The position numbers are program-made. 18,769 nt of DNA from the IMG/VR virus record IMGVR_UViG_2541047426_000010, positions 1 through 18,769 of that record. The stretch is one strand, 5' to 3'. The DNA is from a virus (lineage: Duplodnaviria; Heunggongvirae; Uroviricota; Caudoviricetes). How positions within the stretch are numbered: position 1 is the stretch's first letter; each line of letters opens with the position of its first letter. Positions 3,001 through 9,000 of the stretch are shown piece after piece.

Positions 3001-6000
3001 CGTGCAACGCTGGCAGCTTGATCTGGCTGTACTGGCAAAATCCCGGGAAGAAGAGACGACCCGGCCAACCCTGAAAGAACTGGCAGCGAAGCTGTCCGGA
3101 GGAGTGAATGGTTACAGTCGCTGAACTGCAGGCGCTGCGTCAGGCGCGCCTTGATTTATTAACCGGTAAACGGGTGGTGTCTGTCCAGAAAGATGGTCGC
3201 AGAATTGAATATACGGCGGCTTCTCTGGATGAGCTTAACCGGGCGATCAATGATGCGGAGTCGGTACTGGGGACAACCCGGCGTCGCCGTCGTCCGCTGG
3301 GAGTGAGGTTATGAAACGAACGCCTGTCCTGATTGATGTGAACGGCGTTCCGCTTCGTGAGAGTCTCAGCTACAACGGGGGCGGTGCAGGATTTGGCGGG
3401 CAAATGGCGGAGTGGTTGCCACCGGCGCAGAGTGCCGATGCGGCCCTGCTGCCCGCGTTGCGTCTGGGGAATGCCCGGGCAGATGATCTGGTGCGCAATA
3501 ACGGAATAGCGGCCAATGCGGTGGCACTGCATAAGGATCACATTGTCGGGCATATGTTTCTTATCAGCTACCGTCCGAACTGGCGCTGGCTGGGGATGCG
3601 GGAGACCGCAGCAAAAAGCTTTGTCGATGAGGTGGAGGCGGCCTGGTCGGAATACGCCGAAGGGATGTCTGGCGAGATCGACGTGGAAGGAAAACGCACG
3701 TTCACGGAATTTATCCGTGAAGGTGTGGGCGTTCATGCGTTTAACGGCGAAATCTTTGTGCAGCCGGTCTGGGATACGGAAACCACGCAGTTATTCCGTA
3801 CGCGTTTTAAAGCCGTGAGTCCGAAACGGGTGGACACGCCAGGACACGGTATGGGGAACCGTTTTCTGCGGGCCGGGGTGGAGGTCGATCGATATGGCCG
3901 TGCCGTTGCGTACCATATCTGTGAGGATGATTTTCCTCGCTCCGGGAGTGGACGATGGGAACGGATCCCGCGTGAACTTCCCACCGGGCGTCCGGCCATG
4001 CTGCATATTTTCGAGCCGGTGGAGGACGGGCAGACCCGTGGGGCCAACCAGTTTTACAGCGTCATGGAACGGCTGAAGATGCTCGATTCCCTGCAGGCAA
4101 CACAGCTTCAGTCGGCCATTGTGAAAGCCATGTATGCAGCGACGATTGAAAGTGACCTTGATACCGAAAAGGCCTTTGAATATATCGCCGGTGCGCCGCA
4201 GGGGCAGAAGGATAATCCGCTTATTAATATTCTGGAGAAGTTCTCCAGCTGGTATGACACGAATAACGTGACGCTGGGTGGTGTCAAAATTCCGCACCTT
4301 TTCCCCGGGGATGATCTGAAACTACAGACTGCGCAGGATTCAGACAATGGATTTTCGGCGCTTGAACAGGCGCTGCTGCGGTATATCGCCGCCGGTCTTG
4401 GCGTTTCCTACGAACAGTTGTCCCGTGATTACTCGAAGGTCAGTTATTCAAGTGCCAGGGCCTCTGCCAATGAGTCGTGGCGCTATTTTATGGGGCGGCG
4501 AAAATTTATTGCGGCCCGGCTGGCCACGCAGATGTTTTCCTACTGGCTGGAAGAGGCACTTCTTCGGGGGATTATCCGTCCGCCACGGGCGCGTTTTGAT
4601 TTTTATCAGGCGCGATCAGCCTGGTCACGGGCAGAGTGGATTGGTGCCGGAAGAATGGCCATTGACGGGCTCAAGGAGGTTCAGGAATCGGTGATGCGCA
4701 TTGAGGCCGGACTGAGCACGTATGAGAAAGAGCCGGCGCTGATGGGCGAGGATTATCAGGACATTTTCCGCCAGCAGGTCAGGGAATCTGCAGAGCGGCA
4801 AAAAGCCGGACTCTCACGTCCGGTGTGGATAGCGCAGGCGTATCAGCAGCAGATAGCGGAGAGTCGCAGGCCGGAAGAGGAGACAACACCCCGTGAGACG
4901 TAATCTTTCACACATTATTGCCGCAGCATTCAATGAACCGCTGCTTCTGGAGCCCGCCTATGCGCGGGTTTTCTTTTGCGCGCTCGGGCGCGAGATGGGG
5001 GCAGCAAGTCTTTCGGTACCACAGCAGCAGGTACAGCTTGATGCTCCCGGAATGCTGGCTGAAACGGACGAGTACATGGCCGGAGGTAAACGACCGGCCC
5101 GTGTTTACCGGGTGGTGAACGGTATTGCTGTACTGCCGGTGACCGGCACGCTGGTGCACCGGCTGGGGGGTATGCGGCCATTTTCCGGAATGACAGGCTA
5201 TGACGGCATTGTCGCCTGTCTTCAGCAGGCAATGGCGGATAGCCAGGTGCGGGGCGTACTGCTGGACATTGACAGTCCGGGCGGGCAGGCCGCCGGCGCG
5301 TTTGACTGCGCTGACATGATTTACCGCCTCCGTCAGCAGAAGCCGGTCTGGGCACTGTGCAATGACACGGCCTGTTCTGCAGCCATGCTGCTGGCGTCGG
5401 CCTGCTCCCGACGGCTGGTTACCCAGACATCCCGTATCGGCTCCATTGGCGTGATGATGAGCCATGTCAGCTATGCCGGTCATCTGGCGCAGGCCGGTGT
5501 GGATATCACGCTGATTTACTCAGGGGCGCACAAGGTGGATGGCAATCAGTTTGAAGCCTTACCGGCAGAGGTTCGCCAGAACATGCAGCAGCGCATTGAT
5601 GCGGCGCGCCGGATGTTTGCCGAAAAAGTGGCCATGTTTACCGGTCTGTCTGTTGATGCCGTCACGGGAACAGAGGCCGCCGTTTTTGAAGGTCAGTCCG
5701 GCATTGATGCCGGGCTGGCGGATGAATTAGTCAATGCGTCGGATGCCATCAGTGTGATGGCCACGGCGCTGAACAGTAATGTCAGAGGAGGCACTATGCC
5801 GCAATTAACTGCAACGGAAGCCGCCGCGCAGGAGAACCAGCGAGTGATGGGGATCCTGACATGCCAGGAAGCGAAAGGACGTGAACAGCTTGCCACGATG
5901 CTGGCAGGACAACAGGGCATGAGCGTTGAACAGGCCCGGGCGATTCTGGCCGCGGCGGCACCGCAGCAGCCGGTGGCATCCACGCAGAGTGAAGCCGATC

Positions 6001-9000
6001 GCATTATGGCGTGTGAAGAAGCGAACGGTCGTGAACAACTGGCGGCAACGCTGGCGGCGATGCCGGAGATGACGGTGGAAAAAGCCCGCCCGATCCTGGC
6101 TGCTTCACCGCAGGCGGATGCCGGACCCTCACTCCGTGATCAGATCATGGCACTGGATGAGGCAAAAGGGGCTGAGGCGCAGGCTGAACAGCTGGCTGCC
6201 TGCCCGGGAATGACTGTGGAGAGCGCCCGGGCTGTGCTGGCTGCGGGATCAGGTAAGGCAGAACCGGTCTCTGCATCCACAACCGCCCTGTTTGAACGCA
6301 TCATGGCGAACCATTCACCGGCTGCGGTACAGGGTGGCGTGCCACAGACGTCAGCAGACGGTGATGCGGACGTGAAAATGCTCATGGCCATGCCATGAAG
6401 TCAGTGCTGACCATCAACAGGAGGTTTTTACAATATGGTAACGAAAAACATCACTGAACAGCGTGCGGAAGTACGTATTTTTGCCGGTAATGATCCGGCT
6501 CATACCGCCACAGGCAGCAGCGGGATTTCCTCGGCAACACCGGCACTGACGCCCCTGATGCTGGATGAAGCCAGCGGGAAACTGGTGGTCTGGGACGGAC
6601 AGAAAGCCGGTAGTGCAGTTGGCATACTGGTACTGCCGCTTGAAGGCACAGAGACGGTACTGACCTATTACAAGTCGGGGACCTTTGCGACGGAGGCAAT
6701 CCGCTGGCCTGAAAGTGTGGATGAACACAAAAAGGCAAATGCCTTTGCCGGCAGTGCCCTGAGTCACGCGGCGCTGCCGTAACACGTTATCAGGCCACCG
6801 CGGTGGCCTGACTGATTTCTGAATGAAAGGAACTGATTTATGGGATTGTTTACGACCCGCCAGTTACTCGGTTATACCGAACAAAAAGTGAAATTTCGTG
6901 CGCTGTTTCTGGAGCTGTTTTTCCGCCGTACGGTGAATTTCCATACCGAAGAGGTGATGCTGGACAAAATTACCGGAAAAACGCCGGTGGCGGCCTATGT
7001 CTCCCCGGTTGTTGAAGGAAAAGTGCTGCGTCATCGCGGTGGTGAAACCCGCGTGTTACGTCCGGGCTACGTCAAGCCGAAACACGAATTCCCCTGGAGC
7101 CGGTAAAAGGAGCCGGTACCACCCTGTGGGTTTATAACGGTCAGGGTGACGCCTATGCAAACCCGTTGTCAGACGATGACTGGCAGCGACTGGCTAAGGT
7201 GAAGGATCTGACGCCGGGCGAGATGACGGCAGAATCCTACGATGATAACTACCTGGATGATGAAGACGCGGACTGGACCGCGACCGGGCAGGGGCAGAAA
7301 TCTGCAGGTGATACCAGTTTTACGCTGGCCTGGAAACCGGGAGAGGAAGGCCAGAAAGGGCTTATAGGCTGGTTTGAAAGCGGCGATGTCCGGGCCTATA
7401 AAATCCGTTTTCCGAATGGCACGGTGGATGTGTTTCGTGGCTGGGTCAGCAGTATCGGTAAGGCCGTGACGGCGAAAGAAGTGATCACCCGCACGGTGAA
7501 AGTCACTAACGTGGGTAAACCTTCTGTAGCGGAAGAACGCAGCAAAATTACGCCGGTCAGTGCGATTAAGGTGACGCCGACATCCGGTACGGTGGCAAAA
7601 GGGAAAACAACCACCCTGACGGTTTCTTTTGAGCCGGAAAGTGCAACAGACAAGACGTTCAGAGCGGTTTCCGCCGATCCGTCGAAAGCCACCATTAGTG
7701 TGAAAGATATGACAATTACGGTAAACGGCGTGGCGACAGGTAAGGTGCAGATCCCTGTGGTGAGCGGAAATGGTCAGTTCGCCGCAGTGGCTGAAGTCAC
7801 CGTTACTGAAGCGGGCGCTGCAGGGTAAACGGAGGTCATACATGTTTCTGAAAACAGAACAATTTGAATATAACGGTGTGTCTGTCACGCTTTCCGAATT
7901 GTCTGCGCTGCAGCGTATCGAGCATCTTGCCCTCCTGAAACGGCGTGCAGAACAGGCAGAATCCAGCGGCAACCTGCAGGTAAGCGTGGAAGATCTCGTC
8001 AGAACCGGCGCGTTTCTGGTGGCGATGTCCCTGTGGCATAACCATCCACAGAAAACGCAGTCACCGTCAATGAATGAGGCCGTGATGAAGATAGAGCAGG
8101 AAGTGCTCACCACCTGGCCTGCCGATGCCATTGCCCGGGCGGAAGACGTGGTGTTGTGCCTGTCCGGGATGAGCGGGGCTGTTCGTCCGGATACTGATAT
8201 TACTGAAGTGGCGAAAAATAACACGCTGACTGATGATGATTTTTCTGCGGGAAAGTCTTCGACGGCGAGCTGAACTTTGCCCTCAGACTGGCGCGTGAGA
8301 TGGGGAGACCCGACTGGCGCGCCATGCTTGCCGGGATGACATCCACCGAATATGCCGACTGGCACCGTTTTTACCGCACGCATTATTTTCAGGATACCCA
8401 GCTGGATATGCATTTTTCCGGGCTGACGTACGCTGTACTCAGCCTGTTTTTTTGCGATCCGGATATGCATCCCTCTGATTTCAGTCTGCTTGTCCCCCGG
8501 CATGAGGAAGAGCAGGTGGAGAGGCCGGATGAGGACAAAATGCTGATGCAGAAAGCGGCAGGACTTGCCGGAGGCGTCCGGTTCGGTGGGGACGGAGGGC
8601 GCGATATTTTATCGTCTGCGGATGTGGCGGATGTCATGGTGGATGATGCCGCATTAATGATGGCTTCAGCGGGGATTCCGGGAGGTGTGAGATATGTCCC
8701 AGCCGGTTGGTGATCTTGTTATTGACCTGAGTCTGGATGCTGTCCGTTTCGATGAGCAGATGAGCCGGGTAAGGCGTCATTTTTCAGGTCTGGATACCGA
8801 CGTCAGAAAAACCGCCAGTGCTGTTGAACAGGGCCTGAGCCGCCAGGCGCTGGCTGCACAAAAAGCCGGGATTTCCGTCGGGCAGTATAAAGCGGCCATG
8901 CGAACCCTGCCCGCACAGTTTACGGATATCGCCACGCAGCTTGCCGGTGGTCAGAATCCCTGGCTGATCCTGCTGCAACAGGGCGGTCAGGTGAAGGACT

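Follow-up and report, generated by a model that had tools for sequence, protein, structure and literature searches.

The window analysed here, an 18,769-nucleotide stretch of viral DNA (Caudoviricetes; positions 1 to 18,769 of IMG/VR record IMGVR_UViG_2541047426_000010), carries a gene in which a head-maturation protease is followed by a scaffold region with three tandem, diverged copies of a unit of about 40 amino acids. This open reading frame (ORF) starts with GTG, overlaps the end of the portal gene, and stands in the gene order portal, C/Nu3, D, E that is found in lambda and phage 21 (Table 1). The S49 domain matches PF01343 with E = 2.8e-35 and 122 bits (cutoff 24.9), SppA chains in the PDB match with E = 5e-16, and the whole protein matches phrog_53 (PHROG 53, 'head maturation protease') with E = 1e-227. 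The 200-residue scaffold part matches phrog_8399 (head scaffolding protein) with E = 8.5e-36. Over the protease domain the protein is 54% identical to lambda C, and Ser162, in a CSA motif, is aligned with the active-site serine of lambda C, Ser166, which we take to be the catalytic residue.

Table 1. Features of the protease/scaffold locus and its neighbours (window coordinates; aa, amino acids).
Feature	Positions	Strand	Size or extent	Remarks
Portal gene	3311-4903	+	530 aa	Upstream, overlaps the start of C; annotated as portal in phage 21 and O157 records
Head-maturation protease/scaffold gene	4893-6398	+	501 aa	Phage 21 gene 5 ortholog, lambda C homolog
S49 (SppA-like) serine peptidase domain	5328-5771	+	aa 146-293	Pfam PF01343
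Putative Shine-Dalgarno sequence AGAGGAGG of the nested start	5784-5791	+		Encodes Arg-Gly-Gly in the C frame
Predicted nested in-frame scaffold gene	5796-6398	+	200 aa	Phage 21 gene 6 ortholog, Nu3-like
Unit 1 and linker	5832-5990	+	aa 314-366	Core is the Tri1 box, 5863-5966
Unit 2 and linker	5991-6131	+	aa 367-413	Core is the Tri box, 6003-6113
Unit 3 and linker	6132-6287	+	aa 414-465	Core is the Tri3 box, 6144-6257
C-terminal tail, LFERIMANH...MLMAMP	6288-6395	+		Onset resembles the first helix of a further unit, then a low-confidence acidic tail
Head decoration gene	6435-6782	+		Lambda D/phage 21 shp homolog; Pfam PF02924, E = 4e-24
Truncated major capsid gene	6840-7106	+	First ~84 codons only	Pfam Phage_cap_E, positions 1-80 of 329

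Three tandem, diverged units in the C-terminal part of the protein had been expected by an earlier reading of the DNA (the original prediction), and comparison of the 501-residue protein with itself bears this out, with diagonals at offsets of 50, 47, and 97 amino acids within residues 316-408. The pairwise local scores between units are 87-101, compared to 25-27 ± 5 in shuffled sequences (z-scores of 11-15), and no unit-pair score was reached in any of 1000 shuffles. In global alignments the unit cores, each about 40 residues long, are 48-59% identical to one another. Tandem Repeats Finder detects no repeat in the DNA because the copies are too diverged at that level. We found no Pfam or NCBIfam family matching the scaffold unit above threshold, no match to it among solved structures, and no Rfam match anywhere in the window. 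After unit 3, the tail has a predicted helix at residues 161-172 of the 200-residue model, beyond which the predicted local distance difference test (pLDDT) falls below 50. Three of its residues, F166, M170, and D190, are nearly invariant among the aligned sequences, and the lambda counterpart of this region is LDRLMQG.

Just 5' of the array, an in-frame ATG at 5796 follows the strong ribosome-binding site (RBS) AGAGGAGG after a 4-nucleotide spacer (5784-5798), also as predicted. Translation from this codon would give a product of 200 amino acids and 20.5 kDa, beginning MPQLTATEAA, with an isoelectric point (pI) of 4.6. The combination of GGAGG and ATG, read as Gly-Gly-x-Met in the protease frame, is kept in lambda (ATG 5342), phi80, and N15. 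In lambda the context is tcAGGAGGgcgaATG, the ATG corresponds to Met309 of C, is preceded by AGGAGG, and would give a protein of 131 amino acids and 13.4 kDa. The context is tGGAGGaactATG in both phi80 and N15, whose records annotate a nested 137-residue head scaffolding gene at the GGAGG-ATG start. The lambda nu3 start annotated in NC_001416 is a different one, at 5132 (Met239 of C, inside the S49 domain, giving 201 amino acids and 20.8 kDa); it has no Shine-Dalgarno sequence, and the codon aligned with it in the window is ATT, so it has no counterpart here. ATG 5796 is thus the homolog of lambda 5342 and of the gene 6 starts of phi80 and N15, not of lambda 5132. The idea of a nested scaffold gene as in lambda Nu3 holds at the level of the sequence, with the refinement that the lambda counterpart of its start is 5342 and not the nu3 start annotated at 5132.

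The closest described relative of the locus is coliphage 21. In a megablast search of deposited phages, the window gene is 98.6% identical to phage 21 gene 5 (M81255, 4572-6077) over all 1506 nucleotides, with no insertions or deletions. About 18 further isolated phages, among them ev017, 4A7, 1W, 3W, Lambda_4C10, and the PhiR series, carry the gene at 95-98.7% identity. In M81255, gene 6 is annotated as a nested coding sequence (5475-6077) with a putative RBS (5464-5468), and within it the record marks three stretches as repeat_region: the 'Tri1 box', the 'Tri box', and the 'Tri3 box'. With an offset of +321 from M81255 to window coordinates, the boxes fall at the positions given in Table 1, the gene 6 start on ATG 5796, and the RBS on 5785-5789. 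Translated in the window, the boxes read CQEAKGRE...APQ, IMACEEANGRE...SPQ, and IMALDEAKGAE...GSGK, which are the three units of the original prediction. The 30 nucleotides 5' of the nested ATG are identical in the window and in phage 21, and the complete phage 21 genome (OL657228) annotates a 'capsid protease/scaffolding protein' with a nested 'scaffolding protein', CPT_21_06, whose start is that of the window.

Phage 21 therefore shares with the window the length of the gene, the positions of the three units, the nested ATG, its RBS context, and the flanking portal and decoration genes. The window differs from the phage 21 gene at 21 nucleotides, giving 10 amino acid changes, 4 of which lie in the tail after unit 3; unlike that of phage 21, its copy belongs to a defective prophage whose capsid gene is truncated. 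The triple repeat and the nested gene are already known from the GenBank annotation of phage 21, a statement for which we rely on the deposited M81255 record rather than on the text of a paper. The record reportedly stems from work by Smith and Feiss (1993, Gene 126:1). The feature is not unusual, with three boxes and a nested gene already annotated at exactly these positions, and it matters little as a discovery, having stood in the public record of phage 21 from the early 1990s on.

Lambda C (NC_001416, 4418-5737) has 439 amino acids and exactly one unit, ENSRIMGILNCEEAHGREEQARVLAETPGMTVKTARRILAAAPQ, at residues 357-409, in agreement with the single copy given for it in the original prediction. 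Both loci occupy the same place in the head operon, and in both the protease and the scaffold are read in one frame and end at one C-terminus; the unit and the internal Shine-Dalgarno sequence with its ATG are homologous. They differ in the number of units, one in lambda and three here, and in the linker between protease domain and unit, which is about 45 residues longer in lambda. The lengths of 501 and 439 amino acids had been given correctly, but the difference is not simply two extra units: the gap of 62 residues is smaller than that because of the longer lambda linker. Gene 5/gene 6 of phi80 and N15 likewise make protease and scaffold from one frame, with a nested in-frame GGAGG start encoding Gly-Gly-Thr-Met as here; they contain a single unit, and only about 20-56% of the query is matched, at 50-62% identity. 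That relatives might carry the same three copies had been named in advance as a finding that would count against the original prediction; this is what we see in phage 21 and its relatives, but not in lambda.

The array is ordinary, and the gene is among the commonest prophage genes of E. coli. Of 5426 complete E. coli genomes, 2032 have a near match to the gene, and 1866 contain the whole three-unit segment (5832-6287), which occurs at 2919 places and mostly with 95-100% identity; O157:H7 chromosomes carry copies 100% identical to the window. We also retrieved 84 related loci, from viral contigs and from genomes representing species, and every one of them has three units. The genome-contig scan with the longer alignment gave only 4 loci, and the viral-contig scan only near-identical copies, all with three units. 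Among the sources of the 84 loci are E. coli, Shigella flexneri, E. albertii, and Providencia alcalifaciens.

Across protein cluster representatives, one unit is the norm, and two to four copies occur. The unit was found in 115 of 50,697 deposited phages, 20 of which have the full set of three, the rest being lambda-like with one. A profile of the unit matched 975 proteins at E <= 1e-3 among 1.84 billion cluster representatives; in the best 150 of these 975, one unit occurs in 138 proteins, two in 9, and three in 3. Proteins with the unit are either S49 proteases of about 380-580 amino acids, which have it near the C-terminus, or proteins of about 100-230 amino acids, some of which are fragments or nested-start calls. 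A homolog search with the 200-residue product returned mostly partial fragments, and we used it for spotting variants, not for the distribution of copy number.

The triplication is old, and it is maintained in viable phages. Salmonella Gifsy-type and Providencia prophage proteins contain three units in the same order, orthologous by position to units 1-3 of the window, with about 57-62% identity in the scaffold region. Units 1, 2, and 3 of the window are 80, 69, and 57% identical to the corresponding units of the Salmonella homolog, and for each unit this identity exceeds that to its paralogs (48-59%). The single unit of lambda is closest to unit 1 of the window (64%). Given this unit-by-unit orthology with Salmonella, the triplication is older than the divergence of these head modules, and each unit position has been conserved separately since then.

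Copy number changes by whole units through unequal recombination. In O157:H7 strain 7636 (NZ_CP038421.1, 262-1620), the same defective prophage shows an exact in-frame loss of one unit (49 amino acids), leaving a protein of 452 residues; at the junction, ...ILAAAAPQ is joined to ADAGPS..., the ILAA(A/S)PQ end of unit 1 having recombined with that of unit 2. Two-unit forms with a hybrid of units 1 and 2 also exist. In the other direction, a partial E. coli protein (P0027, 346 amino acids, 48 member sequences) has four units, of which units 2-4 are 81-86% identical to one another, which indicates a recent duplication within the array, in contrast to the old triplication of the window. The three-unit state is nonetheless overwhelmingly stable.

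A separate variant, a 270-residue protein from a Logan assembly (P0048), runs from a DNA methyltransferase-like N-terminus with a DPPY motif straight into a three-unit scaffold sequence, and is either a recombinant or an assembly chimera.

We are confident that the locus is the C/Nu3 gene pair of lambda in its phage 21 form, situated in a defective E. coli lambdoid prophage of the O157:H7 type. In lambda, C is the protease that removes the Nu3 scaffold. In the window, one frame would likewise yield two products, namely a 501-residue S49 prohead protease whose C-terminal 200 residues are scaffold, and a free 200-residue scaffolding protein, equivalent to phage 21 gene 6, made from the internal Shine-Dalgarno sequence and ATG 5796. 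The scaffold would consist of three three-helix mini-domains of about 40 residues, separated by short flexible linkers rich in Pro, Ala, Gln, and Ser, and would end in a short helix and an acidic, disordered tail. AlphaFold2 predicts three short helices for a single unit (15-sequence alignment; pLDDT 86.9, predicted template modelling score (pTM) 0.64), and in the 200-residue model the units have pLDDT values of 70-80, those of linkers and tail being below 60. These models suggest that the units are domains strung on a flexible chain; a fold search with the 200-residue model (pTM 0.27) was not meaningful.

The unit may be the module that binds the procapsid partners, either the major capsid protein or the portal or both, because the lambda scaffold Nu3 has interactions with B, C, and E as well as with itself (PMC3224144). 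The protease, which carries the same units as the scaffold, would for that reason be loaded into the procapsid by co-assembly. Three units would make the scaffold of the phage 21 type multivalent, whereas the single-unit Nu3 of lambda would rely on self-association. The scaffold of P22, gp8, offers a functional analogy only, with a small helical domain near the C-terminus of a flexible acidic protein; the window protein shows no sequence match and no significant fold match to a P22-type coat-binding domain. P22 has one such domain, and its scaffold comes from a separate gene and is not known to be fused to a protease.

Several points weigh against this interpretation of the locus. The codon differences from phage 21, 10 synonymous and 10 non-synonymous, are too few to demonstrate purifying selection on the copy in this prophage. 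The phage 21 record describes the Tri boxes as 'function unknown' and labels the RBS as putative, and the nested product is here a prediction from sequence. Phage 21, with three units, and lambda, with one, build similar capsids, so that copy number may have little phenotypic effect.

Among other explanations, the one that fares best takes the units as real domains that do not bind the capsid protein but serve in self-association, in docking of portal or protease, as spacers, or as sacrificial protease substrates, copy number tuning length or oligomeric state. It is a distinct possibility, though on balance we doubt it. The reported contacts of Nu3 with B (the portal), C, and itself as well as E (PMC3224144) offer several possible partners, the fold is a generic three-helix bundle of the protein-protein interaction kind, and, as happens in some other scaffolds, the capsid might really be bound by the conserved tail that follows the last unit. 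Nevertheless, nothing in the scaffold region is as well conserved as the unit across the approximately 975 cluster representatives, and the unit always lies near the C-terminus of S49 proteases or small, scaffold-sized proteins. This favours a specific, conserved partner over a role as spacer, without singling out one partner.

It is very unlikely that the second half of the unit is a helix-hairpin-helix (HHH) motif and that the protein binds DNA. The weak Pfam HHH match (E = 0.018-0.09) and the weak sequence matches to the AR domains of NusA (E of about 0.7) are all below threshold, PF00633 scoring 13-15 bits against a cutoff of 24, and the protein is acidic (pI 4.6). Moreover, domain III of RuvA and the AR domains of NusA presumably bind protein rather than DNA, and in lambdoid assembly scaffolds exit the procapsid before DNA enters.

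We reject the idea, raised in the original prediction, that the triplication stems from recent slippage during replication or from decay of a gene released from selection, and give it virtually no credence. In its favour, the prophage is defective, with its truncated capsid gene joined next to a tail-tube gene, related O157 copies have a neighbouring insertion sequence (IS) element and frameshifted terminase and J genes, one O157:H7 strain has lost a whole unit, and the ratio of non-synonymous to synonymous codon differences from phage 21 is 10:10. Against it, the ORF is intact, viable isolated phages (21, ev017, 4A7, 1W, 3W, and the PhiR series) carry the three units without insertions or deletions, the array occurs in about a third of the complete E. 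coli genomes (1866 of 5426), its units are too diverged at the DNA level for Tandem Repeats Finder, and in relatives from other genera, Salmonella and Providencia, each unit has its ortholog at the same position.

Returning to the phage 21-type scaffold, we can imagine that the number of units, 1-4 in enterobacterial lambdoid phages, is a selected and tunable valency that co-adapts with the capsid protein and affects the kinetics or fidelity of assembly, with the side product that lambda 5342, and not 5132, may be the conserved functional nu3 start. This proposal is speculative, and we would call it unlikely. What comparative value the locus retains lies in the unit itself, a portable three-helix module of about 40 residues that is present once in most S49 protease-scaffolds and 2-4 times in a few lineages. 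Lambda, with one unit, and phage 21, with three, are closely related and genetically tractable, and would be a convenient pair in which to address scaffold valency.

Two other candidates within the gene were rejected. On the minus strand, the ORFs 5693-6004 and 6140-6391 run antisense to a conserved coding gene and have no supporting evidence. The motif TTGYN6TTGY, given for CII binding sites within gene 6 in the phage 21 genome record, matches the minus strand at 5801-5814 and 6035-6048, but with 3 matches in the window and 3.4 expected it occurs at chance frequency, and we dismissed these matches as CII sites.

The window is homologous to the phage 21 head operon only as far as M81255 position 6769, inside gene 7 (major capsid). 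The capsid fragment is joined near 7090 to a tail-tube gene (lambda V-like, 7088-7828) that is missing its first codons. This junction implies that the equivalents of FI, FII, Z, and U of phage 21 and lambda are deleted and that the prophage cannot build heads alone; the truncated capsid gene makes it a defective prophage. The C gene, itself intact, thus lacks a cognate capsid gene in cis. In O157 genomes the capsid gene is given by RefSeq as 'major capsid protein, incomplete', and the same junction is present in O157:H7 PV15-279 and 7636. In a related O157:H7 copy, an IS3-family element lies next to the terminase, and the terminase, portal, and J genes are frameshifted.

The left end of the window (1-1250) differs from the PV15-279 prophage, which is otherwise 98.5% identical, and positions 1-285 match the PV15-279 locus (6429-6714) in reverse orientation. 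A Nu1-like ORF at 715-1224 covers only positions 62-163 of 164 in Pfam Phage_Nu1, its N-terminal DNA-binding part being replaced or missing. In the tail-tip J/Lom region (15013-17319), identity to the PV15-279 prophage drops to 84%, compared to 95-98.5% in the flanks, a mosaicism typical of the host-range region of lambdoid phages.

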